A stretch of DNA of 64,000 bases from NCBI RefSeq assembly GCF_041886205.1, contig NZ_CP169029.1, one strand, 5' to 3'. Both the position numbers and the translations under genes were made by a program. This DNA comes from Escherichia coli (GTDB lineage: Bacteria > Pseudomonadota > Gammaproteobacteria > Enterobacterales > Enterobacteriaceae). The notes under the pieces are model-generated. The model was not told the DNA's origin. It saw nothing but the letters and a program-made list of their open reading frames with translations, and did not search any database. Of this stretch, positions 2,304 through 46,282 are shown one piece after another (positions within the stretch are counted from its first letter, which is position 1; every line of letters begins with the position of its first letter).

Positions 2304-4727
2304 TTAAACCTTTTCGATCTGGACAAGATTGCTGTGCGACGGGTTTCCCTTTGCCAGCGGTGAAGGGCGGTGAGAGGTCAGAATATTGATACTGCCGCCG
2401 TGATCGACCCGGTCACCAAACATATCCGCTTTAAGCCACGCACCTTGCCCGATGGCGGTAACGCCAGGCAGAATACGCGGAGTCACTTTTGCGGCAATCA
2501 GCATTTCTCCATTATTGTTAAATACCCGCACGGTATCGCCATGACGGATACCGCGTGCCTGAGCATCAATGGGGTTGATCCACACCTCTTGTGGGCAGGC
2601 CTGCTGTAACACATCAATATTGCCGTAGCTGGAGTGGGTACGCGCTTTGTAATGGAAGCCCGTTAACTGCAGTGGATAGGTTTTCCGCAGGGGATCGTCC
2701 CAGCCATCAAAACCTGGGGTATACGCAGGAAGGGGATGAATAATTTCATCTTTTTTCAATTCCCAGGTATCTGCAATCTTCGCCAGTCGTTCAGAATAAA
2801 TTTCGATTTTCCCCGAAGGTGTTTTCAACGGGTTTGCCTGTGGATCTTCACGGAATGCGCGGAAAGCGACGTAGTGTTCTTCCGGGCATTTTTTCTTAAA
2901 GATCCCGGTCGTTTTCATCTCCTCGTAGTCGGGCATCTCAGGGTTACGTTCCTTCGTTTTCGCATGGAGATATTTGATCCATTCATGCTGACTGCGACCT
3001 TCAGTAAAGGTTTGATAAACGTCTGGTCCTAAGCGTTTGGCGACTTCACTCAGCATCCAGTAGATGGGTTTGCGTTCAAATTTTGCTGAGGTTGCGGGTT
3101 GGGCGAGGATCACATAGCCCATATTCCCTGCAGATTCATGAGAGATAAGGTCTTCTTGCTCTGTTGGCATCAGGTCGGGCAACAGGATATCGCAATACTT
3201 AGCCGAGGCCGTCATGAAGTGGTCAATGCCAACAATCATCTCGCACTTGCTGTCATCCTGAAGCACCTCATGGGTGTGATTGATGTCGCCATGTTGATTG
3301 ATCAATGTGTTACTGGCGTAGCACCATAAAAACTTGATGGGGACATCCAGTTTTTCTTTTCCACGAACACCATCACGGGTCGCGGTCATTTCCGTACCAT
3401 GGTCGATGGCATCTGTCCATGTAAAGACGGAAATCTGCGTTTTAACAGGATTCTCGAGCATCGGGAACCATTCTACCCCCAGATCCCAGCTACCTTCGCG
3501 TACGCCTGAGTTGCCGCCGTTTATGCCGACGTTGCCGGTGAGAACGGAAAGCATGGCAATAGCGCGGGATGTTTGCTCGCCGTTGGAATGTCGTTGTGGC
3601 CCCCAACCCTGACAAATATAAGCAGGTTTTGCTGAACCGATCTCTCGTGCCAACTGGATAATTTTTTCTGCCGGGATGCTGGTGATTTTTGCTGCCCATT
3701 CCGGCGTTTTAGCTATGCCGTCAGGCCCTTCGCCCAGAATATAGGCTTTATAATGCGCGTTACGTGGTGCGTTGGCGGGCAGCGTTTTTTCATCGTAACC
3801 AACACAATATTTGTCGAGAAATGGCTGATCGACCATGTTTTCAGTAATCAGTACCCAGGCAATCGCACAGGCCAGTGCGCCATCGGTGCCAGGGCGAATG
3901 GGCAGCCATTCATCTTCACGCCCGGCAGCAGTGTCGTTATAACGTGGATCGATGACGATCATGCGTGCGTTTGAACGTTCGCGGGCTTGCTCGACGTAGT
4001 AAGTGACACCACCGCCGCTCATCCGCGTTTCTGCCGGGTTATTTCCGAACATAACGACCAGTTTCGTATTGGCGATATCATCCGGGCTGTTGCCATCATT
4101 GGCACCGAACATATAACTCATTGCGGCACTGATCTGTGCGGTACTGTAGCTGCCATAGCGACTGAGAAAACCACCGCAAGAGTTCATCAGACGGTACGGG
4201 ACGTTTGAGTTGGTGATGTTTCCGCCATCTACACCTGTTCCGTACAGGACATGTACAGCCTCATTGCCGTAATCTTTTAGGATCCGCCGAAGATTATCAC
4301 TGATGGTATCCAGGGCTTCGTCCCAACTTATCCGTTCAAATTTACCTTCACCGCGCTTGCCGACGCGCTTCATGGGATATTTCAACCTATCAGGATGATT
4401 CATCCGTCGGCGGATAGAGCGCCCGCGTAAACACGCGCGAACCTGATGATTACCGTAGACGTCGTCACCTGTCGTATCAGACTCCACCCAGTACACGGTG
4501 TCATCTTTCACATGCAAACGTAACAGACAGCGGCTCCCGCAGTTAACGGTGCAGGAACTCCAGACCGCTTTCTCTTCTACCGGAACCTCTGCCGCCCGAA
4601 CCATTTGGGAAAATGGCAGAGTGAAAGCACTGCTTGCCAGCGCGAGACTGCCAAGTGCGGAGGTTTTCATCAGACTTCTACGGCTGATTTCAGCCTTCAT
4701 GAGCGCCTCTGTGGTATGGATTTTCAT
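2304..4727 (-). CDS. ynfF: Tat-exported molybdopterin oxidoreductase catalytic subunit (DmsA paralogue)
   Basis: 807 aa; twin-arginine signal SRRSLMK; N-terminal Cys cluster CTVNCGSRC; large MopB-type protein. Confidence 0.9.
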   Translation of the reverse strand: MKIHTTEALMKAEISRRSLMKTSALGSLALASSAFTLPFSQMVRAAEVPVEEKAVWSSCTVNCGSRCLLRLHVKDDTVYWVESDTTGDDVYGNHQVRACLRGRSIRRRMNHPDRLKYPMKRVGKRGEGKFERISWDEALDTISDNLRRILKDYGNEAVHVLYGTGVDGGNITNSNVPYRLMNSCGGFLSRYGSYSTAQISAAMSYMFGANDGNSPDDIANTKLVVMFGNNPAETRMSGGGVTYYVEQARERSNARMIVIDPRYNDTAAGREDEWLPIRPGTDGALACAIAWVLITENMVDQPFLDKYCVGYDEKTLPANAPRNAHYKAYILGEGPDGIAKTPEWAAKITSIPAEKIIQLAREIGSAKPAYICQGWGPQRHSNGEQTSRAIAMLSVLTGNVGINGGNSGVREGSWDLGVEWFPMLENPVKTQISVFTWTDAIDHGTEMTATRDGVRGKEKLDVPIKFLWCYASNTLINQHGDINHTHEVLQDDSKCEMIVGIDHFMTASAKYCDILLPDLMPTEQEDLISHESAGNMGYVILAQPATSAKFERKPIYWMLSEVAKRLGPDVYQTFTEGRSQHEWIKYLHAKTKERNPEMPDYEEMKTTGIFKKKCPEEHYVAFRAFREDPQANPLKTPSGKIEIYSERLAKIADTWELKKDEIIHPLPAYTPGFDGWDDPLRKTYPLQLTGFHYKARTHSSYGNIDVLQQACPQEVWINPIDAQARGIRHGDTVRVFNNNGEMLIAAKVTPRILPGVTAIGQGAWLKADMFGDRVDHGGSINILTSHRPSPLAKGNPSHSNLVQIEKV

Positions 4728-7412: not shown

Positions 7413-7718
7413 TTACTGCGGTTCGGCAGGCGCGCCATCCTGGCTAGACTGCGCGGGAGCAGAGACGTTACCGCTGGTGGTGCGGGTATAGAGAATTTTA
7501 TGCGTATCATTAGCGCAATGGCCGACGACCTGGGAATCAGGCTGATCAACCTGGTCATTGGGTACAATACTTAACGTGAAGCTGCTTTCGGGTACGCCAT
7601 TATTGATAATGCGCTGTGATATATCGCTCTGTATGCGCTCACAGGATCCCGGCGCGGCGAGTACCGCGGGTGAGGCGAGGGCGAGCAGAAGCGCGGCACA
7701 GCAGGTTGAGAGTTTCAT
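7413..7718 (-). CDS. ynfD: small secreted protein YnfD
   Basis: Track ORF 115 aa; start placed at MKLSTCCAALLLALASPAVLAAP (signal peptide), giving 101 aa. Confidence 0.7.
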   Translation of the reverse strand: MKLSTCCAALLLALASPAVLAAPGSCERIQSDISQRIINNGVPESSFTLSIVPNDQVDQPDSQVVGHCANDTHKILYTRTTSGNVSAPAQSSQDGAPAEPQ

Positions 7719-14140: not shown

Positions 14141-15989
14141 CGATTTCTTTATCTCTTACATCAGACGAGCGCCGGTTGCAGAATACCAGTCACAACCGGC
14201 GACAGTTGAACATTAAGAATCAGCCTGACTCGGGATCAGTTTTTGCCAGATAGCTGAAACGTATTTTGCCTGGTAACGGGCGTCATCAAGTGCATTATGG
14301 CGCTCACCTTCGAATGGAATAGCCGTTCTGGCATCGAAGTCTATGGCTTTCCCCAGCTCAACGATTGTGCGTACATCGCGATCGTTGTAGTAACGCCACG
14401 GGCAGGGGATCCCCTGCCGTTCGTATGAACGGCGCAAAATCGTGTTGTCGAAGTTGGCTCCATTTCCCCAGACATGAACAAAAAATTCACCGGAGTTTTC
14501 GTCGATAAATTCCCGCAATTGTAACAGTGCATCATCTAACGGGATTTCATCGGTCATAATGGCAGATTGCGCTTCGCGTGATTGTTTAAGCCACCATTTA
14601 ATGGTGTCCCGATCAATGACTCCGCCAGCAGTTTCCAGATCGATAGTCTTACTAAATTCCGGTCCCATATCTCCGGTTTGCGGATCGAAAAATATTGCAC
14701 CTATTGAGATAATCGGGGCATCGGGATTTTTTCCCATGGTTTCAAGGTCGATCATCAGATGAATCCCCGCTCTGCTGGTGGATGTGAGATTATGATGACC
14801 GTTTGCCTTAATTAAGGGATCTGACGCCTCGCCAGTTTCACTATCGCTGGCATGATGCTGATTGCCGCCAGTGTTCTCCTTGTGCTGATGCGCAGTGCCT
14901 TCTATTTCCTCCGGATCATTTTCCTGAACTTCAGGCTGATTCTCTCCATCGAATATTTCCTGGTATGTTGCGTCACCCATCACCGCACCACAATCAGGGC
15001 AGTTGCCGCCACCGCTCTGACCGCAGGCGGTGCAGATCTTTTCCGGTTCCTGTTGCACTACTGGTTCAGGTTGTTTCGTTTCTGGCTCGTTTTGTTGCAT
15101 ATTTGGGCTGTTTTGTTCCGCTTTCTGGTCGTTCTGTTCCGTTTCTTGCTGGTTCTGGTTCACAGAATCGCGGGTCTGGATCCCCTTAATCCATTTCGGA
15201 TCATTCGGGTCGCTAATCCCTTCAACAAATTCACCACGTGATACTGCAAGCAGTTCATCGGCGTCAGGCTGGCTGATATTGGCTGCCTGCATAATTTTGT
15301 TTACTTCGTCAGCGGTAACTTTTACTGACCCTGGTTGTGCGGTCGTGTCAGATGCACCAGTATTTTGTTGTGAACCTGAGTATGTACCGTTTTTGCGGGC
15401 GAAATATTCTTCTTTCGTGATTTCAGTAGCCCCAGCAGACAGCGCCTTATCCAGACCAGAAAGTTTATTTGCGCGACCGTATTTTTCGCCATCCTTGTCG
15501 GTGAAGAGGAAGTAGAACGGCCCCTCACGTTCTACAGATGGTTCGACTTCCACTTTGCATTCGGTTTTTTCGTTGTCTGGAATTGCCGTTTCCACTGCAT
15601 CAGTTTCTGGTACTGGCGACGAGAGAGTATCAGTTGCGCTCTGATTTGTTCCTTCATCTTCAAACACGCCCTTTGTAGTCAGGTATTCAGTAATGTATTT
15701 GTTCAGTGCCACAGGGTCTTTGTGAATGTCGATCGGACGTTCACGGACAAGGCCAAAAATAGTCTGGCGGTCGTAGCGAAGGGCATCAGGCTGTTTGCGC
15801 ATTGATGCCGAGATACGCTTCCAGTCTTCGCGGTCGTTGTCGATAACTTCATTTTTTGCCCAGCGATGGATGCTGCCGTCAATGTTTCCGGCATCCACAT
15901 CACCAGGCCAGAGAGCGTAGGCCAGTTCGTCATCCTGAACCGCCCCGGGAATCCTGGAGACTAAACTTCCTGAGAAAGAGGTAAACAGG

Positions 15990-16316
15990 ATGACTAAAAA
16001 TACTCGTTTTTCCCCCGAAGTCCGTCAACGGGCAGTCCGTATGGTTCTGGAAAGTCAGAGCGAATATGACTCACAATGGGCGACAATTTGTTCCATTGCT
16101 CCAAAGATTGGCTGTACGCCGGAGACTCTGCGTGTCTGGGTTCGCCAGCATGAGCGGGATACCGGGGGCGGTGATGGAGGGCTCACCACCGCTGAACGTC
16201 AGCGTCTGAAAGAGCTGGAACGTGAAAATCGTGAACTGCGCCGCAGTAACGATATCCTTCGCCAGGCTTCCGCTTATTTTGCGAAGGCGGAGTTCGACCG
16301 CCTCTGGAAAAAATGA
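15990..16316 (+). CDS. IS3-family transposase OrfA (HTH)
   Basis: 108 aa [21 protein letters not shown]...; leucine-zipper-like C-terminus. Confidence 0.85.
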
Positions 16317-17203
16317 TGCCACTGCTGGATAAGCTGCGTGAGCAGTACGGGGTCGGACCGCTATGCAGCGAACTGCATATTGCCCCGTCAACGTATTACC
16401 ACTGTCAGCAACAGCGACATCATCCGGATAAACGCAGTGCCCGTGCGCAGCGCGATGACTGGCTGAAGAAAGAGATACAGCGCGTATACGATGAAAATCA
16501 CAAGGTATACGGTGTGCGTAAAGTCTGGCGTCAGTTGTTACGGGAAGGTATCAGAGTGGCCAGATGCACTGTGGCACGTCTCATGGCGGTTATGGGACTT
16601 GCCGGTGTTCTCCGGGGTAAAAAGGTCCGTACGACCATCAGCCGGAAAGCCGTTGCCGCAGGCGACCGCGTAAACCGTCAGTTCGTGGCAGAACGACCTG
16701 ACCAGCTGTGGGTGGCTGATTTTACTTACGTCAGCACATGGCGGGGCTTCGTCTATGTGGCGTTCATCATTGATGTGTTTGCCGGATACATCGTGGGGTG
16801 GCGGGTCTCATCGTCCATGGAAACGACATTCGTGCTGGATGCACTGGAGCAGGCGTTATGGGCCCGTCGACCGTCCGGCACGGTCCATCACAGTGATAAA
16901 GGTTCTCAGTATGTATCGCTGGCCTACACACAGCGGCTTAAGGAAGCCGGATTACTGGCATCAACAGGAAGTACAGGCGACTCGTATGACAACGCGATGG
17001 CGGAGAGCATCAATGGTCTTTACAAAGCGGAGGTAATACACCGTAAGAGCTGGAAAAACCGTGCAGAAGTGGAACTGGCCACACTCACGTGGGTGGACTG
17101 GTATAACAATCGACGATTGCTGGAAAGGCTGGGCCATACTCCTCCGGCAGAAGCAGAAAAAGCTTATTATGCTTCCATCGGAAACGATGATCTGGCAGCC
17201 TGA
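16313..17203 (+). CDS. IS3-family transposase OrfB (DDE integrase core)
   Basis: 296 aa with rve-type DDE domain; overlaps orfA in -1 frame. Confidence 0.85.
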
Positions 17204-18017
17204 GTTCACAGATAAAACACTCTCCAGGAAACCCGGGGCGGTTCATCCAGTGTTTTCCATGTCTGCTTGTATTCGCGATGAATGGCAGCAATGACCGGGT
17301 TGATTTTTCCTGTTGAATTTTCAGTGTGCTGTTGATTGGCTCTGGCACGGGCGAGATCAACAACAGACGTGTATTTTCCGGCTTCCTTGCGTTCACCTTC
17401 GCGACGTTTTTTCCAGATGCGCATCTCTGCCTGAATTTCGGGCCATTTGGCACCAGGCTTACATTTATGCTTAACCCACCCGATGGCATGCAGCTTAAGC
17501 TCCGGATACATAGCGTTAACTTCTGGCATTTTCATCAACGCTTCAACGATATGGCCGTCGAATGTTGCCATGTCTTCCTGCAACAATTCCTGTGCGCTAA
17601 TCACCATATCAACAGTGATGTTTTCACATGTGTCGAACTTAACCATGACAGCGTTCTGTACTTCAGGGGCTAGGTTGTCAAAAGTGACGTTCATCGGATC
17701 GGATTCAGTCTCGACCGGGACAAAGGAAGCAGACGCCTCATCCCAGCGGTTTTCCTGCATATATTCAGCATCCCAGGAATCGAGGGCAGGGCGGGGTATA
17801 CCGGGTTTATCCTCGCAAACAAGAAATTTATAAGCGCAGTCCTGAGCAGCCGGATAATGTTCCAGGAATTGCCAGTGAAATTTTGCGCGGGCGCGACGTT
17901 CATCACCGGCTTCAATGGCAGTGGCTACAGTGAGACGAACTTCGCCGTGCGCTTTCGTGTTGTGTGCCTGCTTTTAACCACGTCAGGCGAGGTGGTATCC
18001 TTAAAATCACCACAGTT

Positions 18018-18593
18018 TTAAGGATTCATTAAGCAATGTCGCAACCACCAATAAATCCGCTTAAGAACATGAAAATTGATTACTGGTATAAAGCGCTTAC
18101 AGTTGTTGGCGCTGCGTTGTTTGTCTTTAATGGAACGTCTTTTTTTGACAGATATCCCGTTGTTCCATTGGATTTTTTGTCCTCCGGCATCTTTTTTATT
18201 GGTTTGGGGGAGTGGATTAATCACCCTCTCAAAGTGAGATTTATTGGTCCTGGAGTTTGGACTCGTGGATATAATCGTTCTTAGTGCGCACTCGGTATCA
18301 TCTTCGACATACTTGGTTGTTTCCTGATTGTTACAGGAGTCGTCAAGTTCTTCTGATGTAAAACCGCAAATGGGGCACGTAACGGGAATTTTGAAAAGCG
18401 TTTCTCCGGGTTCCAGAACAAAATTTTCTGCGGTCTGATTTTGCTTCTCATATTTGTGCTCCGCGTCATTGTGAGAGCACATTCTTATTCTGAGTGCCTG
18501 TTTAAACTCACTGAAGCTGAGAGCTTCTTCGCCTTCGGCAAGACCTTCGAAGTATTCTTCGTAAGCCTTTTCCATGATTGTGTCGAAATCCAT
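18018..18593 (-). CDS. hypothetical phage early protein; C-terminal half doubtful
   Basis: Start at MDFDTIMEKAYEEYF...; first ~110 aa look protein-like, the rest is K/R-rich low complexity and overlaps a plausible plus-strand ORF. Confidence 0.35.
   Translation of the reverse strand: MDFDTIMEKAYEEYFEGLAEGEEALSFSEFKQALRIRMCSHNDAEHKYEKQNQTAENFVLEPGETLFKIPVTCPICGFTSEELDDSCNNQETTKYVEDDTECALRTIISTSPNSRTNKSHFERVINPLPQTNKKDAGGQKIQWNNGISVKKRRSIKDKQRSANNCKRFIPVINFHVLKRIYWWLRHCLMNP
18036..18284 (+). CDS. hypothetical small membrane protein (two predicted TM helices)
   Basis: 82 aa with hydrophobic segments ALTVVGAALFVF and SGIFFIGLGEWI; RBS AAGGA upstream; lies antisense within the 18018-18593 ORF. 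Confidence 0.3.
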   Translation: MSQPPINPLKNMKIDYWYKALTVVGAALFVFNGTSFFDRYPVVPLDFLSSGIFFIGLGEWINHPLKVRFIGPGVWTRGYNRS

Positions 18594-18594
18594 A

Positions 18595-18831
18595 TCACTC
18601 ACCTGAGTTTCTTTCCAGCCAGCGACGGGCACCATTTTCGGTTTTAAACGTTTTGCTTTTGGTATACGTCATCGCGGTGAACGTACCGTCCTGGTTGGGG
18701 AACACGCCACATACCGGAGATTCGCTGTTGCCAAGATCGATAGTATCCATGCTGACCTCATTTCCCCTTAACGCCGGGGTAGCGGAACAAAAACCTGCTG
18801 CATAGTTATTAAAGTTGAACCCTGCCGTCAT
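18595..18831 (-). CDS. hypothetical phage early protein
   Basis: 78 aa ORF; stop overlaps next start (TGAtATG arrangement), suggesting translational coupling. Confidence 0.4.
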   Translation of the reverse strand: MTAGFNFNNYAAGFCSATPALRGNEVSMDTIDLGNSESPVCGVFPNQDGTFTAMTYTKSKTFKTENGARRWLERNSGE

Positions 18832-19047
18832 GTTCTTACGCCTCGGGCTGGCTACTTAACCCCTGACCACTGCCTGGTAACTCGAAGTATTGCCCTGCAT
18901 TCTGTGGGGCGGGGTGGGTGGCAGGCATATAATGTACTTTGCGTTCATTGTTGTAAAGTACTTTTAGTACATTTTGTGTGTAAAAAAATGAGATGGGATA
19001 AAGTGAAGCACAAACCCGGAGGAAGGCGCTACCGGATTTATGCTGGT

Positions 19048-19467
19048 TTAAGAGGCTTTTTGTTTTTTCTTTCGTGCTAACTCTTCGTAAATTGCATTGT
19101 ACTTCTGTTTTTTCTCTTCAAGAGTTTTTAAAAGTTCATCTGTCTCACTGTCAGGGAGCTCGTCCAGAAGGTCAATGATGATTTTTTGTCTTGGATTTAA
19201 CTCCTGATAGAAACGTACCTGTCCACTTTCTTCTGTATCCTCTCCCAAAAGATAGGTTGGTGTTGTTCCTATTAGTGTTGCTAATTCCCTTAATTTCTCC
19301 CGGCGAGGAATTGTTTCGCCATTAAACCATTTGCTAACCGCTTTTGGTGTTAATTTCATTCGACGGGCAATTTCTGCCTGCCTTCCATGTTGTTCATAAC
19401 CAGCGTTTTCACAGGCTAGCGCAAGCCTACTGGCGAACTCTTTACGCGCTTTATCTTCATGAACCAT
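19048..19467 (-). CDS. prophage repressor, XRE-family HTH (RacR/DicA-like)
   Basis: 139 aa; HTH QAEIARRMKLTPKAVSKWFNGETIP; divergent from a Cro-like gene. Confidence 0.7.
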   Translation of the reverse strand: MVHEDKARKEFASRLALACENAGYEQHGRQAEIARRMKLTPKAVSKWFNGETIPRREKLRELATLIGTTPTYLLGEDTEESGQVRFYQELNPRQKIIIDLLDELPDSETDELLKTLEEKKQKYNAIYEELARKKKQKAS

Positions 19468-19546
19468 AAGTTCAATGATATTCGCTCTTGAATGTACTGT
19501 CAGTTCTGTTATAGCATGTACTCAAAGTTCACACTGTGAGGGTGAT
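19468..19546. promoter_or_regulatory. divergent immunity promoter/operator region
   Basis: 79-bp intergenic region between repressor and Cro-like gene; direct repeats TGTACT at 19493-19498 and 19517-19522. Confidence 0.4.
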
Positions 19547-19801
19547 ATGAACCAGAAAACACTTGAAGATGTAATCAAAACTGTTCGCGTTGCTGTTGTG
19601 GCCGACGTTTGTGGTGTCAGCCAAAGAGCAATCTATAAATGGATGGATAACGGAAAATTGCCTCGCACAGAATATACCGGCGAAACAAATTACGCTGAAA
19701 AAATCGCTCTTGCATCAAACGGATTATTTTCTGCCGATGCAATTTTAACTATTGGCAGGAATAAAACTACTACGAAAAAGCTGATGGGAGTTGATTCATG
19801 A
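19547..19801 (+). CDS. Cro-like / YdaS-like small DNA-binding protein
   Basis: 84 aa from MNQKTLEDVIKT...; RBS GAGGG; position opposite the repressor. Confidence 0.55.
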   Translation: MNQKTLEDVIKTVRVAVVADVCGVSQRAIYKWMDNGKLPRTEYTGETNYAEKIALASNGLFSADAILTIGRNKTTTKKLMGVDS

Positions 19802-20223
19802 AAATCAAGCATGAACACATCCGCATGGCGATGAATGCCTGGGCGCATCCGGACGGCGAAAAAGTACCGGCTGCGAAAATTACCAAAGCGTATTTCGAGC
19901 TGGGAATGACGTTCCCGGAACTGTATGACGACAGCCATCCGGAAGCCCTGGCTCGCAATACTCAGAAAATTTTCCGCTGGGTGGAGAAAGACACCCCTGA
20001 TGCGGTTAAAAAAATTCAGGCGTTGTTACCAGCTATCGAAAAAGCAATGCCACCTCTGCTGGTGGCCCGAATGCGCAGTCATAGCTCAGCCTATTTTCGG
20101 GAACTAGTGGAGACGCGGGAACGACTGGTGAGAGACGCTGATGATTTTGTCGCAGTGGCGATCGCTGGTTTCAACCAGATGAATCGTGGTGGCCCTGCAG
20201 GAAATATTGTGGTTGTGCATTGA
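19798..20223 (+). CDS. YdaT-like protein
   Basis: 141 aa starting MKIKHEHI..., third gene of a RacR-YdaS-YdaT-type module; overlaps upstream stop. Confidence 0.5.
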   Translation: MKIKHEHIRMAMNAWAHPDGEKVPAAKITKAYFELGMTFPELYDDSHPEALARNTQKIFRWVEKDTPDAVKKIQALLPAIEKAMPPLLVARMRSHSSAYFRELVETRERLVRDADDFVAVAIAGFNQMNRGGPAGNIVVVH

Positions 20224-20288
20224 CTCGCAATATTCATACCGGATCACTTCCGGCAATTTGTGAGTAAAAAGATTCGGTATCAAAAGAG

Positions 20289-21365
20289 GTGAGTATGGCT
20301 AACGCCTGGCTCAGATTATGGCATGACATGCCAAATGACCCTAAGTGGCGAACAATTGCCAGGGTGTCAGGGCAGCCAATTGCAACAGTGATGGCAGTGT
20401 ATATCCACCTCTTGGTGAGCGCGTCACGAAATGTCACGCGAGGTCACATTGATGTCACGACAGAAGATTTGGCAAGTGCGCTCGACGTGACAGAAGAGGT
20501 AATTGATTCAATTTTGCAGACGATGCAGGGGCGGGTACTTGATGGTGATTTAATCACTGGATGGGAAAAACGCCAGGTGCTTAAAGAGGACAACGGCAAT
20601 ATTTCGCAAACCGCAAAATCTCCTGCAGAGCGCAAGAGGGCGCAGCGAGAGAGGGAAAGAAAGCGGGAACAAAATGGCGATTGTCACGGCGCGTCACGAA
20701 ATGTCACGCACATGTCACGACGAGTCACGACAGATAAAGATACAGATAAAGATACAGATCAAGAAGATCAAAACACTATGGTCCATGGCGTAAAAAACGC
20801 CACGAACCAGGCAGGGGATGTTCAGACCGTCAATCTTGGTCAGCCAGCAGGCACGACACCGGAAGCCGATTCAGCGTATGCGCTGAAAGCCGATTCGGGC
20901 GCTGTGCAGCAGGTGATGACCGCAAGGCCGGAGCAATCACACCAACTGCAGCAGCCCGAAGCCGATTCCGCCATTCAGCGGGAAGCCGATCGGGTAGTCC
21001 CGGAAAACACCGGGCAGTCTGTGGGACGAGTGGATTATCCGGATGTGTTCGAACAGGTCTGGCGGGAGTACCCGTTGCGTGCCGGAGCAAACCCGAAGAA
21101 ATCCGCTTTCAGTGCCTGGAAGGCCAGATTACGCGAGGGGGTGCCACCAGAGGCCATGCTGGATGGCGTGAGGCGTTACGCAAGATACTTGGCGGCTACC
21201 GGGAAAACGGGAACGGAATTTGTTCAGCGAGCGACGACGTTTTTTGGACCGGACCGGAATTTTGAGAACTCCTGGTTGCTCCCGGTAAGCGGCACGAACA
21301 ACCAGCGTTGTGTGAATCATATTTCTGAACCGGATAACGAAATTCCGCCGGGCTTCAGGGGGTAA
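20289..21365 (+). CDS. phage replication initiator / replisome organiser, O-like
   Basis: 358 aa; N-terminal WLRLWHDMPNDPKW motif; the coding sequence contains iterons; GTG start with RBS. Confidence 0.6.
   Translation: MSMANAWLRLWHDMPNDPKWRTIARVSGQPIATVMAVYIHLLVSASRNVTRGHIDVTTEDLASALDVTEEVIDSILQTMQGRVLDGDLITGWEKRQVLKEDNGNISQTAKSPAERKRAQRERERKREQNGDCHGASRNVTHMSRRVTTDKDTDKDTDQEDQNTMVHGVKNATNQAGDVQTVNLGQPAGTTPEADSAYALKADSGAVQQVMTARPEQSHQLQQPEADSAIQREADRVVPENTGQSVGRVDYPDVFEQVWREYPLRAGANPKKSAFSAWKARLREGVPPEAMLDGVRRYARYLAATGKTGTEFVQRATTFFGPDRNFENSWLLPVSGTNNQRCVNHISEPDNEIPPGFRG
20423..20765 (+). repeat. putative replication origin: nine GTCAC(G/A) iterons in two clusters plus an AT-rich tandem repeat
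   Basis: Iterons at 20423, 20433, 20443, 20454 and 20683, 20693, 20703, 20714, 20724 (10-11 bp spacing); then GATACAGATAAA x2.5. Confidence 0.5.
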
Positions 21366-21828: not shown

Positions 21829-22223
21829 CGAGATTAAAGTGCATTAGTTCAGATGCAAATTGACATTTTGTGGCACAGGGTAGAGCTAGCGTGGTTGTCC
21901 GCTTTGTGCCAACAGCGGACATTATGGAAGGTCAGAGTTAAAGATTAAAATGGGATGCTGTGTGTTTTCTCCAGGTTTTGCTCTATACCTTTCGGGATAC
22001 TCCACCGACAGAATACGAAAATCAACATTATCAACGGCTCGAAGTGTCTAGATTATCCATGGCAATTCATGGGAAATCCCATCCAACGGCTTATGCTTCA
22101 TGTTGCTTTTTGAGATCGCTTCTAGCATAGCTCCACTCAATAATGTTGTCGGGTCGTTGCTGATCGAAAAGGATACGGGATTCAATACCATTACCTAAAA
22201 AGCTGGTACCGGAACTCGGGCTG

Positions 22224-25852: not shown

Positions 25853-26575
25853 GTGGATAATATGTCATACATATGTTCTATCATTTTGGTGTTGAACTCG
25901 TTTGGTGTCCGAATTGGTAAAGAAGATATTTTGTTTAAAAAAGGAAATGCTGTCCTCATTGAATACAATTTAAAAGATCTTTTTTCGTCAAATACAGATC
26001 ATCTAATGATCGTAGATGTTGAGGAGAAAACAGTTAATGATTTCTTTAAAAACTACACACTCTCACCTTTTTCTGTAAGAAGGTTTTATCCGTCATACTT
26101 GATAGTAGAATGTGAAGATTTTTCATTGTTAAAGAACTTGGTTGCATGCTTGAATTGTGATAGCAAAACCGTGGATGTAGTTAGAAATCAAATATCACTT
26201 GCATGTCTTGCTGTCTTATCTTCAGAGAAAATAGTGCAAAGTTTTTTGTTCGGAAGTCTTAATAGCTTAGGTTGTAAAGTTAAGGCTATTATTCACTCGG
26301 ATATCTCAGCGTCATGGAGACTTTGTGATATATCTTCAAGATTATATATGAGCGAGAGTTTGTTAAAAAGAAAATTAAAAGACGAAGGATTATCGTTTAG
26401 TAAATTAATTCTTGAAGAACGAATGATGATGGCGCAAAGATTATTGATCTACAGTAACCATACTGTCGGCAAGGTGGCGGGAATATGCGGGTATGACAAT
26501 GCATCATATTTTGTAAGTGTTTTTAGAGGATATTTTGGTGTGCCTCCGCACCAATATTTATCAAGATTTTCTTAG
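25853..26575 (+). CDS. AraC/XylS-family transcriptional regulator (AppY/YdeO/GadX-like)
   Basis: 240 aa; C-terminal AraC HTH (GICGYDNASYFVSVFRGYFGVPPHQY); AT-rich gene and flanks. Confidence 0.75.
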   Translation: MDNMSYICSIILVLNSFGVRIGKEDILFKKGNAVLIEYNLKDLFSSNTDHLMIVDVEEKTVNDFFKNYTLSPFSVRRFYPSYLIVECEDFSLLKNLVACLNCDSKTVDVVRNQISLACLAVLSSEKIVQSFLFGSLNSLGCKVKAIIHSDISASWRLCDISSRLYMSESLLKRKLKDEGLSFSKLILEERMMMAQRLLIYSNHTVGKVAGICGYDNASYFVSVFRGYFGVPPHQYLSRFS

Positions 26576-28320: not shown

Positions 28321-28683
28321 GGTAATATTAAATCGGAACATTTACATCGCGGAATGTAAAATTTAAATAAAAAGGACTCTTCCATGAGCCAAAATTCCTG
28401 AAATCTTAAGGGTAAGATAAAAGGTCTTAATCAGAATGACACGTTATTATTAATAAATAAAGCTATTCTTTCATTGCTGTGTTTTTCTTTACAAAAGTAA
28501 TCCTTGCTATGGGTGGTTAATCATGCGTTAATGGTGTTCTGGTTTGTTACAAATTTATCTGAAGCAGTCATTGTTATAATTTTATTATTTGTACCTCTTG
28601 AGATTTCCTTGTTGGTTTTTCTCTCTGATATTTTTTTTCGGACCATTCTGCCCAAGGGCTAATTTCTTCAAAAGGTAATAATT

Positions 28684-28896
28684 ATGTCTAACAAAATGAC
28701 TGGTTTAGTGAAATGGTTTAACCCTGAAAAAGGTTTTGGTTTCATCACGCCGAAAGATGGCAGCAAAGATGTGTTTGTCCATTTCTCAGCAATTCAGAGC
28801 AACGATTTCAAAACATTAACTGAGAATCAGGAAGTTGAATTTGGTATTGAGAACGGACCTAAAGGTCCTGCCGCTGTTCATGTAGTGGCGCTTTGA
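28684..28896 (+). CDS. cspI: cold-shock protein (CspA family)
   Basis: 70 aa [23 protein letters not shown]...; long upstream leader typical of csp genes. Confidence 0.9.
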
Positions 28897-29167
28897 GGTA
28901 GACAATATTACAAACCATATTCACTTTAGATGCCCGTGTTGTCATGGTTCCCAGTATAGAACATCATCTTTTGATGTTTCTGACATGAATCCTTTCGGGG
29001 CAAAATGTATCTTTTGTAAATCAATGATGATTACATTTGATAATATTTCACAATACTTAAATGCCAGCCGTCTGTCGTTGGATTTAAAAAAGTGAAAATG
29101 AAGGCTCCTTCGGGAGTTTTTTTGCTTGGTATCTATTCGATGGATACTCACATACTACGGTAACATC

Positions 29168-34043: not shown

Positions 34044-34618
34044 TGGCATTCAGAATGAGTGAACAACCACAGACCATAAAAATTTATAATCTGCTGGCCG
34101 GAACTAATGAATTTATTGGTGAAGGTGACGCATATATTCCGCCTCATACAGGTCTGCCAGCAAACAGTACCGATATTGCACCGCCAGATATTCCGGCAGG
34201 CTTCGTGGCTGTTTTCAACAGTGATGAGGCATCGTGGCATCTCGTTGAAGATCATCGGGGAAAAACCGTCTATGACGTGGCTTCCGGCGACGCGTTATTT
34301 ATTTCTGAACTCGGTCCGTTACCGGAAAATGTTACCTGGTTATCGCCGGAAGGGGAGTTTCAGAAGTGGAACGGCACAGCCTGGGTGAAGGATACGGAAG
34401 CAGAAAAACTGTTCCGGATCCGGGAGGCGGAAGAAACAAAAAACAACCTGATGCAGGTAGCCAGTGAGCATATTGCGCCGCTTCAGGATGCTGCAGATCT
34501 GGAAATTGCAACGGAGGAAGAAATCTCGTTGCTGGAAGCATGGAAAAAGTATCGGGTATTGCTGAACCGTGTTGATACGTCAACTGCACAGGATATTGAA
34601 TGGCCAGCACTGCCGTAG
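34043..34618 (+). CDS. tail fibre assembly protein Tfa
   Basis: 191 aa; start overlaps the stf stop; typical Tfa N-terminus ([21 protein letters not shown]). Confidence 0.8.
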
Positions 34619-45978: not shown

Positions 45979-46007
45979 ACATTCATTGAGAAAACTGATG
46001 CTACTGT

Positions 46008-46111
46008 GTCAACGATCCGTTATCAGTGCAGGAAAATGCCTGTTAGCGTAAAAGCAAAACACAAATCTATCCATGCAAGCATTCACCGCCGGTTTACTGG
46101 CGGTTTTTTTT
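46008..46111 (+). ncRNA. mgrR: MgrR-like small RNA; 5' end approximate
   Basis: About 100-nt unit between the PhoP-like box and a strong terminator (stem GCCGG/CCGGC then T8 at 46085-46111); K-12 context recalled from memory. Confidence 0.5.
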
Positions 46112-46186
46112 CGCCGTCATAAAAATCAGGCCCCTTGTACACAACTGTAACAAGGGGCCGGTTAGGTGAGGGATTATCTCCGTTCA

Positions 46187-46282
46187 TTAGTCATCCCATT
46201 TGTGGCTGAAATACGCGGCCAGAAAACCAGAAAATAAAATTATTCCCAGTACGGCCATAAAAACATTCATATTACCCAGCAT
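46187..46282 (-). CDS. mgtS: small membrane protein MgtS (YneM), 31 aa
   Basis: Below the track's 60-aa cutoff; translation MLGNMNVFMAVLGIILFSGFLAAYFSHKWDD; followed on the minus strand by a hairpin terminator. Confidence 0.7.
   Translation of the reverse strand: MLGNMNVFMAVLGIILFSGFLAAYFSHKWDD

Follow-up and report, generated by a model that had tools for sequence, protein, structure and literature searches.

An HK022-type repressor head, Cro and operators beside a DicA/PaaR2-type tail and a YdaT activator: the probable immunity switch of a Qin-site cryptic prophage of Escherichia coli

The immunity region of phage HK022, with its cI, OR, cro and OL elements, is described in GenBank X16093 and by Carlson & Little 1993, as cited in PMC8053113. 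In E. coli O157:H7, the immunity region of the prophage CP-933P / Sp12 encodes PaaR2, YdaS and YdaT (PMC8630535, PMC9986795). PaaR2 forms an octamer and does not respond to mitomycin C (PMC8630535), while YdaT of this prophage is a tetrameric POU-type DNA-binding activator (PMC9986795) reported to be non-toxic (PMC8630535). The racR-ydaS-ydaT region of the K-12 Rac prophage is also documented (PMC5700373, PMC5700377, PMC11879457), and there the expression of YdaT is toxic (PMC11879457, PMC5700377). The site recognized by YdaT, the YdaT-box, has been footprinted in the CP-933P and Rac systems (PMC9986795, PMC11879457), and both footprints and activation are published (PMC9986795, PMC8630535, PMC11879457). 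In K-12 Qin, the DicA/DicC switch has the antirepressor Rem (PMC10448788). More generally, the short repressors of the Gifsy type, GfoR, GfhR and GtgR, are inactivated by antirepressors, and DicA and RacR have been named as E. coli members of this class (PMC3121763).

The locus compared here with these systems lies in a window of 64,000 nucleotides (64 kb) of E. coli contig NZ_CP169029.1 (assembly GCF_041886205.1), within a prophage integrated at the Qin site (rspB to ydfJ) and not at the Rac site; this is the position of K-12 Qin, which has the same flanking ydfA and ydfB. The region very probably constitutes the immunity (lysis-lysogeny) switch of this lambdoid cryptic prophage, working by the mechanism proposed below. 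The switch is an ordinary mosaic of three known modules, without any novel system. As judged by homology, these modules are an HK022-type repressor head with its Cro and operators, a non-cleavable tail of the DicA/PaaR2 type and a YdaT activator. The observations behind this reading are the homologies, the operator positions, the colinearity with HK022, the conservation across relatives and the intactness of the module. The genes involved are as follows.

18598-18750, minus strand: ydfA/ydaF-like DUF1391 gene, first of the leftward (P_L) operon (tblastn, Pfam).
19048-19467, minus strand: repressor ORF, 139 aa (Pfam HTH_3, E 1.8e-9).
19547-19801, plus strand: Cro-like regulator, 84 aa (HK022/HK75 Cro homology; phrog_35).
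19798-20223, plus strand: YdaT, predicted CII-analogue transcription activator, 141 aa (PF06254, E 1.1e-9; phrog_163, 'CII-like transcriptional activator').
20295-21365, plus strand: predicted replisome organizer / O-like replication initiator, next in the rightward operon (phrog_3729 over its full length, E 3e-257).

The gene and operator layout is that of a lambdoid switch, with a cro-divergent repressor, OR, OL, a CII-type activator and replication genes. As the original prediction had stated, the XRE repressor gene is divergent from a Cro-like gene that is followed by a ydaT gene whose product begins with MKIKHEHI; the replication genes come next. The same cI/cro/cII-like layout is found in CP-933P, and the gene order is alike in Rac, where a DUF1391 gene likewise lies leftward of the repressor. 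The cro start is placed at ATG 19547, with GAGG upstream at 19538-19541; it is the start given by PGAP in related genomes and is colinear with that of HK022 cro. The stop codon of cro overlaps the start of ydaT in ATGA. Equivalents of the 20295-21365 gene in relatives are annotated by PGAP as 'phage replisome organizer', and the product of 18598-18750, which has a Pfam DUF1391 match, is 94% identical to K-12 YdfA (tblastn) and 84% identical to YdaF of Rac.

The repressor comprises a five-helix HTH domain (about aa 1-75), a linker and a helical C-terminal module (about aa 88-139). Its HTH aligns with those of HK022 and HK75 CI, the identity of the N-terminal DNA-binding domain to HK022 CI being 47.5% (E 1e-22, tblastn), and the recognition helix, TPKAVSKWFNGE, differs by a single residue from that of HK022, TPKAISKWFNGE. 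The alignment with HK022 CI stops at about aa 102. HK022 CI has 235 aa and carries an S24 (LexA-type) self-cleavage domain, whereas the repressor considered here, with 139 aa, ends in a DicA/PaaR2-type tail and has no match to the S24 peptidase domain (PF00717) in Pfam; those relatives that bear an S24 domain have only the head in common with it. In length and in the absence of S24 it resembles the Gifsy-type repressors (about 140 aa).

The tail, of roughly 50 aa, belongs to a family common to DicA and PaaR2. Homology to DicA, which is also short and non-cleavable, is seen in the C-terminal module (29% identity over 112 aa, E 5e-15); PaaR2 is matched with E 2e-5, is assigned to phrog_5736 like the present repressor and also lacks a cleavage domain. 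The motif LxPRQ..LL.LF..LP.SE.D..L..LEEKK is present. No Pfam model covers the tail, and in an AF2 model of the repressor it is of moderate confidence (mean pLDDT 76). A Foldseek search with this model returned generic XRE/HTH matches, and a full-length likeness to SinR and arbitrium repressors was discounted in view of its high rmsd. The module is C-terminal in about 40 representative clusters and is joined to many different HTH heads. A 138-aa homologue from Salmonella (P0012) is located in a different lambdoid prophage, and no identity with GfoR or GfhR is claimed for it.

Tail relationships do not extend to the heads or to the Cro partners. The PaaR2 head and YdaS of CP-933P are, pair by pair, unrelated to the repressor head and Cro found here, and the DicA head and DicC of K-12 Qin are of another specificity type, DicC being phrog_409 and the present Cro phrog_35. 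The Cro-like protein is instead 57-58% identical to HK022 Cro and 55% identical to HK75 Cro, with a conserved HTH. It has no PF15943 match in Pfam, and its similarity to K-12 YdaS in BLASTP is non-significant (E 0.075), both proteins being members of the broad phrog_35.

The intergenic region separating the repressor and cro genes (19468-19546) is exactly 79 bp long, as in HK022. The two TGTACT repeats announced for it, 24 bp apart, are exact and start at 19493 and 19517. The full repeat is of 7 bp, ATGTACT, at 19492 and 19516; the 64-kb window has 3 plus-strand copies, the third (18932) lying in the OL region, and the Poisson chance of at least two copies in 79 bp is about 7e-6. The partial inverted repeats also reported there are real, each TGTACT being the left arm of a pseudo-palindrome of 15 bp, TGWAC-N5-GTWCA, a pattern taken from the HK022 annotation. 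Perfect matches to this pattern number 3 in the window, all inside the module, and a cluster of five sites, each with no more than one mismatch, lies within 600 bp, at spacings of 24, 33 and 24 bp, while shuffled sequence gives about 7 matches with at most one mismatch per 64 kb. A 17-bp pattern, ATGTACT-N3-AGTWCAT, retrieves the same sites with a higher background, and the 15-bp pattern was preferred as cleaner. The TGTACT repeats, proposed at the outset as candidate operators, are parts of predicted OR2 and OR1 and correspond to annotated oR sites of HK022. The predicted operators and promoters are listed below.

18933-18947, no strand: operator OL1, TGTACTTTGCGTTCA; perfect consensus, between the -10 and -35 of P_L.
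18957-18971, no strand: operator OL2, AGTACTTTTAGTACA; one consensus mismatch, 24 bp centre-to-centre from OL1.
19460-19474, no strand: operator OR3, TGAACCATAAGTTCA; perfect consensus, its centre holding the repressor start codon (CAT, 19465-19467).
19493-19507, no strand: operator OR2, TGTACTGTCAGTTCT; first TGTACT, one consensus mismatch.
19517-19531, no strand: operator OR1, TGTACTCAAAGTTCA; second TGTACT, perfect consensus, between the P_R -10 and the cro Shine-Dalgarno.
18929-18957, minus strand: P_L-like promoter; -35 TTTACA (18957-18952), 17-nt spacer, -10 CATTAT (18934-18929).
19475-19503, minus strand: P_RM-like promoter; -35 CTGACA (19503-19498), -10 TATCAT (19480-19475).
19488-19515, plus strand: P_R-like promoter; -35 TTGAAT (19488-19493), 16-nt spacer, extended -10 TGtTATAGC.

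Colinearity with HK022 (X16093) holds base for base and without indels across the operators, the cI start, the cro start and the pR/pL hexamers. The consensus is the same, the operator spacings of 24 and 33 bp are the same and the pR/pL hexamer offsets are identical. OL1 corresponds to the HK022 oL site 2201-2215, TGTACTTAAAGTTCA, and OL2 to the oL site 2225-2239. On the rightward side, OR3 is identical at 15/15 positions to the oR site 3000-3014, which likewise covers the cI start, and is 15/15 identical to both oR1 and oR3 of HK022; OR2, located 33 bp centre-to-centre from OR3, is the counterpart of the oR site 3033-3047, TGTACTATCAGTTCC, and OR1, 24 bp from OR2, that of the oR site 3057-3071. 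One difference concerns the region downstream of cro, where HK022 has O_FR: here, a scan of 19532-20400 at up to 2 mismatches gave no operator-like site.

This arrangement is conserved in relatives. In an alignment of the OR regions of eight relatives the half-sites are invariant and the spacers of OR1 and OR3 vary, while the right half-site of OR2 and its adjoining spacer bases (TCAGTTC) are invariant. HK75, Tritos, vB_EcoS-673R7, Klebsiella phage 2b and Citrobacter phage Omnitron all show the OR1/OR2/OR3 and OL1/OL2 layout, and the OL1/OL2 pair is present in Tritos, vB_EcoS-673R7 and the Klebsiella, Citrobacter and Salmonella relatives. In Salmonella phage SI8, OR1, OR3 and both OL sites are retained but OR2 has a diverged left half, and one Salmonella prophage has the full OR and OL set. 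The TGWAC-type layout was not found in Rac or CP-933P and, conversely, the operators of PaaR2 (GTTTAGTAA palindromes) have no occurrence in 18900-19560. No ORF is found between the repressor and OL, so that the paaA2-parE2 cassette of CP-933P is missing here.

OR1, OR2 and OR3 overlap predicted P_R and P_RM in the 79-bp region, and OL1 with OL2 (18933-18971) overlap the -35 and -10 of predicted P_L. The P_L-like promoter scores 9/12 in a promoter scan and is exactly colinear with the annotated -35 and -10 of HK022 pL; a terminator-like match at 18934-18961 was rejected, as it consists of the inverted OL half-sites. P_R has a weak -10 (TATAGC) and scores too low to be reported by the promoter scan, and its assignment is therefore drawn from HK022: the hexamers are colinear with the annotated pR -35 (3028-3033) and -10 (3050-3055), and the extended -10 comprises TG at 19507-19508 and the hexamer at 19510-19515. 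The P_RM-like promoter scores 10/12, and a TAnnnT hexamer occupies the position of its -10 in HK022, HK75 and the Klebsiella, Citrobacter and Salmonella relatives. Since the repressor ATG starts 8 nt past the predicted -10 and is not preceded by a Shine-Dalgarno, the repressor mRNA is probably leaderless, as is probably also the case in CP-933P; precedents are paaR2 and lambda cI (PMC8630535). The predicted -35 of P_RM is inside OR2, and occupancy of OR2 could therefore either activate P_RM, as in lambda, or repress it.

The third module, YdaT, takes the place that lambda-type CII and pE have in HK022, and it is associated with the following elements.

19791-19808, no strand: YdaT-box (O_M), TTGATTCATGAAAATCAA; TTGATT-N6-AATCAA, spanning the cro stop and the ydaT start.
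19764-19769, minus strand: TAGTTT, speculative candidate -10 of a YdaT-activated P_RE-like promoter, beginning 22 nt beyond the YdaT-box.

YdaT is about 88% identical to YdaT of CP-933P (PDB 8BT1, E 5e-81) and about 96% identical to the protein of PDB 3C4R (E 4e-90), both percentages being counted from the alignments. Identity to YdaT of K-12 Rac is 33% over the full length (E 1e-15), both proteins being phrog_163, and K-12 Qin retains only a YdaT remnant, ydfX, 36% identical to the YdaT N-terminus. The YdaT-box is exact and is the sole match with up to one mismatch in the 64-kb window. The CP-933P site has the same sequence and the Rac site differs from it by one base; the 18-bp box and its flanking 36 bp are identical to CP-933P, and this conserved 36-bp junction appears, from the sequence comparison, to be the swap point. 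The candidate TAGTTT has the same offset from the box as TACAAT in CP-933P, where the P_RE933P fragment is defined by primers. The P_RE core is not conserved with respect to CP-933P, since the cro genes differ, and a leftward promoter activated by YdaT with this -10 is speculative. In Rac, the YdaT-activated promoter is about 190 bp away (PMC11879457). An oop-like antisense RNA within ydaT (minus-strand hairpin, 20066-20049) was also considered and rejected, with a fold z of 0.16 against shuffles and no convincing promoter.

Given these homologies, the original attribution to the RacR/YdaS/YdaT type survives for the YdaT homologue and for the gene order, but finds no support for the repressor and Cro, whose DNA-binding parts have their relatives in HK022 CI and Cro. 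Alignment with K-12 Rac confirms the YdaT relationship and limits that of the supposed RacR to 12/33 identities over 33 HTH residues; no orthology is detectable between the repressor and RacR or between Cro and YdaS. It is very unlikely that the locus is an orthologue of the Rac module with an essential repressor holding down a toxic downstream function, as the toxicity of Rac YdaT and the near-identical YdaT-box could suggest. Rac-type phages such as vB_EcoS-673R7 do have this repressor and Cro, which in them replace racR and ydaS. For RacR, however, no PHROG match reaches E 1e-6, in contrast to this repressor, the operators are of the HK022 type, and both these and the integration site differ from Rac.

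The conditional lethality suggested for such a module is weakened by two points: the closest characterized YdaT, that of CP-933P, is the non-toxic one, and the classical leftward killers dicF, dicB and ydfD, present in intact relatives, are deleted from this prophage copy, whose exonuclease gene is split by an IS. Searches of the 64-kb window found none of hokD, dicB, ydfD, ydfC and dicF, and rem, which like dicF, dicB and ydfD belongs to K-12 Qin, is not in the window either. Any lethality would consequently have to arise from the rightward operon, where the replication gene together with Q and the lysis cassette offers a possible route.

Another reading is prompted by Pfam, whose models are called YdaS_toxin and YdaT_toxin: the cro-like and ydaT genes would form a type II toxin-antitoxin pair. 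These genes are small and overlapping, and the second matches the Pfam 'YdaT_toxin' model and is named 'toxin YdaT family protein' by PGAP. Yet its closest homologue is a POU-type activator whose footprinted site is found exactly here (PMC9986795), toxin-antitoxin activity has been disproved for the corresponding pair of CP-933P (PMC8630535; also PMC5917428), the neighbouring cro-like gene is homologous to HK022 cro, and the pair sits between OR and the replication genes, as do cro and cII. A toxin-antitoxin function is, on this evidence, extremely improbable, and the lambdoid switch is retained as the preferred interpretation.

For this switch, homology and position suggest the following scheme with regard to binding, promoter activity, leaderless mRNA, oligomerization and induction route. 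The 139-aa repressor, acting as an oligomer, would bind the 15-bp pseudo-palindromes. On OR1 and OR2 it would cover P_R and switch off the rightward genes, from cro and ydaT to the replication gene and beyond, and on OL1 and OL2 it would cover P_L. Binding to OR3, over the repressor start codon and transcription start, would provide negative autoregulation of the probably leaderless P_RM transcript. The Cro-like protein would compete for the operators of the repressor, and YdaT, as a CII analogue bound to the box at its own start, would turn on a leftward promoter that produces the repressor transcript.

Switching may depend on an antirepressor or on a stochastic event rather than directly on RecA. 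In the absence of an S24 self-cleavage domain, the repressor is probably not directly SOS-inducible, so the switch is probably not flipped by RecA directly. A scan for LexA boxes (CTGT-N8-ACAG) gave three matches, of which one is in the prophage (29530), with a GC-rich spacer, and is not credible. A tblastn search with Rem gave no match in the 64-kb window or in relatives; unlike the Gifsy-type systems, the prophage has neither a Rem-like antirepressor nor a LexA-controlled gene that could be found. No Nun was found among the genes examined here. Data on Tritos bear on the same module: in a Tritos lysogen the CI gene is transcribed 24-fold over the local background, and Tritos is absent from the set of prophages that ciprofloxacin induced (PMC9928086).

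Tritos is a plaque-forming phage, and its CI and Cro are each 100% identical to the repressor and Cro-like protein found here, with only two substitutions over 18881-19982, a stretch that takes in operators and genes. This proximity is relevant to whether the module might be an inert relic, recognizable in sequence but deprived of function or expression. The prophage around it is indeed heavily degraded, with the interrupted exonuclease gene, two internal deletions and most virion genes missing. Within the module, nevertheless, three full-length ORFs persist, and it is retained in 409 of 5426 complete E. coli genomes (about 7.5%), the 139-aa repressor forming a cluster with 411 member sequences. 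Loss of function is very unlikely under these circumstances, and an intact immunity switch within a decaying prophage is the interpretation kept here.

The block is often mis-annotated, as 'toxin YdaT family protein' or 'helix-turn-helix domain-containing protein', and can now be re-labelled as a complete lambda-style switch, the predicted operators of which are placed to the single base. It offers a clean case of mosaicism at the level of repressor domains, with an HK022 head and a DicA/PaaR2 tail beside a YdaT of the CP-933P type. Known questions are refined by this analysis, and no new biological question is raised. Several predictions follow for the prophage: it should show no direct SOS response, the classical leftward killers are gone from this copy, and the phages that this widespread cryptic prophage may exclude can be predicted. 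More tentatively, and as a possibility rather than a probability, the repressor of the cryptic prophage, with the recognition helix of HK022, an OR3 identical to oR1 and oR3 of HK022 and the swapped tail, might confer permanent SOS-proof immunity against HK022-type phages, the Cro of an incoming HK022-type phage could induce the prophage, and the tail may be a portable module for oligomerization or antirepressor targeting that is shuffled among heads.

The original prediction was of an immunity module of the RacR/YdaS/YdaT type, akin to that of K-12 Rac, with TGTACT repeats in its divergent promoter. Its layout and repeats are borne out, with three open reading frames:

19048-19467, minus strand: repressor ORF, 139 aa, Pfam HTH_3
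19547-19801, plus strand: Cro-like ORF, 84 aa
19798-20223, plus strand: YdaT ORF, 141 aa, N-terminus MKIKHEHI, Pfam PF06254 'YdaT_toxin'

The repeats lie at 19493 and 19517, in the 79 bp between the repressor and Cro-like genes (19468-19546), and are far from chance occurrences, the 7-mer ATGTACT having only three plus-strand copies in the entire window, the third at 18932 in a second regulatory region. The Rac label holds for the architecture and for YdaT, a full-length homologue of K-12 Rac YdaT (33% identical, E 1e-15), but not for the repressor, the Cro-like protein or the operators. Alignment of the repressor with K-12 RacR is confined to 33 HTH residues, and the pairwise match of the Cro-like protein to K-12 Rac YdaS is not significant. 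In tblastn searches of phage genomes, identical repressor and Cro proteins are encoded by Escherichia phage Tritos and 98-99% identical ones by Rac-like phages such as vB_EcoS-673R7, while the N-terminal 100 residues of the repressor match HK022 and HK75 CI (47%, E 1e-22) and the Cro-like protein matches HK022 Cro (57%). The recognition helices of the aligned repressors are near-identical (TPKAVSKWFNGE here, TPKAISKWFNGE in HK022).

The HK022 reference, GenBank X16093, has annotated operators and promoters and was read side by side with the window. All of its features map to the window, the shift in position being constant within OR and, at a different value, within OL.

HK022 features (X16093 position) and their counterparts in the window
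pL -10, 2197: 18929
oL, 2201: 18933 (OL1, 18933-18947)
pL -35, 2220: 18952
oL, 2225: 18957 (OL2, 18957-18971)
oR, 3000-3014: 19460-19474 (OR3), TGAACCATAAGTTCA, 15/15 identical
cI start, 3007: 19467
pR -35, 3028: 19488
oR, 3033: 19493 (OR2, 19493-19507)
pR -10, 3050: 19510
oR, 3057: 19517 (OR1, 19517-19531)
cro start, 3087: 19547

Perfect matches to the operator consensus TGWAC-N5-GTWCA number three in 64 kb, every one in the module, and five sites with one mismatch or none fall inside a 600-bp stretch. HK75, Tritos, vB_EcoS-673R7, Klebsiella phage 2b and Citrobacter phage Omnitron share this OR and OL layout. The full operator set is also present in a Salmonella prophage whose short repressor is 65% identical; in Salmonella phage SI8, OR1, OR3 and both OL sites are preserved and the left half of OR2 has diverged. 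Neither Rac nor CP-933P has this layout. Across an eight-way OR alignment the half-sites are invariant and the OR1 and OR3 spacers variable, the pattern by which comparison reveals functional operators. Given HK022 colinearity and this operator comparison, the TGTACT pair supplies the left half-sites of OR2 and OR1; the repeats thus stand as candidate operators, but of an HK022 type absent from Rac.

Promoter scanning found a P_L (TTTACA-17-CATTAT) and, on the minus strand, a P_RM-like sequence (CTGACA-17-TATCAT, 10/12), while HK022 colinearity points to a P_R made of TTGAAT, 16 nt and an extended -10, TGtTATAGC. The P_RM -10 ends 7 nt ahead of the repressor ATG, no Shine-Dalgarno sequence precedes this ATG, and a TAnnnT hexamer is kept at the -10 position in all relatives aligned. 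For these reasons, and by the precedent of lambda cI and paaR2, whose mRNAs have been shown to be leaderless (PMC8630535), we infer that the repressor mRNA is leaderless. The predicted P_RM -35 falls within OR2, so that OR2 occupancy may either activate or repress P_RM; HK022 may control its immunity promoter otherwise than lambda (PMC8053113).

The repressor differs from HK022 CI in its C-terminal part: HK022 CI has 235 aa with an S24 peptidase domain (phrog_4, UmuD-like matches) and other long relatives carry PF00717, whereas the repressor here ends at 139 aa. Its last ~50 residues match the tails of K-12 DicA (29% over 112 aa, E 5e-15) and of PaaR2, which shares phrog_5736 with this repressor, and no Pfam model covers them. 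A tail-only search of 1.8 billion representative proteins returned 40 clusters, mostly of 120-185 aa proteins, the match being C-terminal in all but one; the heads that were scanned are of diverse HTH types. In the AF2 model (mean pLDDT 76), aa 3-74 form a five-helix HTH, followed by a disordered linker and two further helices, one short (92-103) and one long (106-138). PaaR2 forms octamers and is unresponsive to mitomycin C (PMC8630535). Relief of repression comes from the antirepressor Rem in the case of DicA (PMC10448788) and from antirepressors under LexA control in that of the Gifsy short repressors (PMC3121763). Tritos is plaque-forming, its lysogen transcribes the CI gene 24-fold over local background, and the prophages that ciprofloxacin induced did not include it (PMC9928086). 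This tail kinship and literature together suggest a non-cleavable, oligomeric repressor. No Rem homologue was found in the window or its relatives, and no credible LexA box in the prophage.

YdaT matches PDB 3C4R (E 4e-90) and 8BT1, the CP-933P YdaT (E 5e-81), with about 96% and 88% identity, respectively, as counted on the printed alignments. CP-933P YdaT footprints TTGATT-N6-AATCAA (PMC9986795), a motif present once in the window with zero mismatches, at 19791-19808 across the cro stop and ydaT start; the equivalent Rac position reads ATGATT-N6-AATCAA (PMC11879457). Since YdaT in published systems activates the leftward promoter feeding the repressor gene (PMC9986795, PMC11879457, PMC8630535), it would be a CII analogue. 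The ~36-bp stretch GGAGTTGATTCATGAAAATCAAGCATGARCACATC (19786-19821) combines the Shine-Dalgarno sequence, this YdaT-box and the first ydaT codons. Conserved across modules otherwise unrelated in the upstream cro or downstream ydaT body (CP-933P, L007 3989-4024; two other compared loci, L012 ~7647-7682 and L002 5678-5695), it looks like a recombination joint swapping cro-type and ydaT-type modules. The first 83 residues of YdaT (19798-20046) share 36% identity with K-12 Qin YdfX (96 aa; L013 15347-15637), which makes the Qin ydfX-ydfW pair look like a broken cII analogue of the YdaT type. An antisense terminator-like hairpin inside ydaT (GCCACC...GGTGGC then a T-run; 20049-20066, minus strand) recalls lambda oop RNA; shuffled sequences fold equally well (z = 0.16), no promoter was found, and the hairpin is probably due to chance.

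By megablast, the 1.5-kb block occurs at >=80% coverage in 409 of 5426 complete E. coli genomes. Annotated relatives carry it as the immunity region of a lambdoid prophage between rspB and ydfJ (the Qin site), ordered int, xis, exonuclease, ydfD, dicB, ydfB, ydfA, repressor, cro-like, ydaT, replisome organizer and DUF977, with Q and a lysis cassette beyond. The window's copy is degraded, and most virion genes are absent. An IS3-family element of 1310 bp (15936-17245; 3-bp TCC target duplication) splits the exonuclease gene, which is ydfE/recE-like, and is expected to stop transcription from reaching xis and int. The element has terminal repeats starting with TGAACCGCCCCGGG and an ALIL frameshift pseudoknot (16271-16387), and by length and ends it presumably resembles IS629. 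Compared with the strain JSMCR1 locus, ~0.9 kb with dicB and ydfD, and dicF by position (L003 17622-18548), is missing at a junction at ~17926-17933 with an 8-bp overlap; tblastn found no dicB, ydfD or ydfC in the window, and Rfam no DicF. Another ~3.8 kb (L003 22832-26597; junction ~22203-22208), encoding a 463-aa hypothetical protein, an AbiH abortive-infection gene, hokD and a 92-aa ORF, is absent relative to relatives, and its loss truncates ydfU (DUF968), whose first codons are gone.

The slot between repressor and OL holds a HigB-like toxin and an HTH gene in a Salmonella relative (L014 6553-7220) and paaA2-parE2 in CP-933P (L007 2741-3212), and is empty here (18972-19047, 76 bp). Given this varying cargo and its correspondence to the rexAB position in lambda, it seems to be a recurrent insertion site for morons and toxin-antitoxin genes. 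A putative 205-aa ORF (18018-18635, minus strand) starts identically to K-12 YdfB (34/42 aa), extends further and matches phrog_35040 full-length (E 5e-148); PGAP leaves it uncalled in related genomes, where only a ydfB fragment is annotated. A 240-aa AraC-family (HTH_18) regulator (phrog_1450; 25853-26575, plus strand) immediately precedes the prophage lysis cassette and adjoins lipocalin and YbgA/2-thiouracil desulfurase-like morons. Rfam gathering-score matches mark the STnc560 Hfq-binding sRNA (45980-46193), IS009 (34386-34584) and a cspA-type thermoregulator 5' UTR (28538-28923) ahead of cspI, the prophage's cold-shock gene.

The switch itself is very probably functional, because only two bases differ from Tritos over 18881-19982, at 19523 (OR1 spacer) and 19534. 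With the leftward killers (dicB, ydfD and, by position, dicF) deleted, any killing of the cell on loss of the repressor would have to come from the rightward operon, which retains an O-like initiator and Q, together with an essQ-rrrQ lysis cassette placed by colinearity with relatives. CP-933P YdaT is reported to be non-toxic (PMC8630535), and Rac YdaT to be toxic (PMC11879457). As judged from sequence comparison, the region is a lambdoid immunity switch that combines HK022-type specificity with a DicA/PaaR2-type tail and a YdaT of the CP-933P type, all three being known modules.
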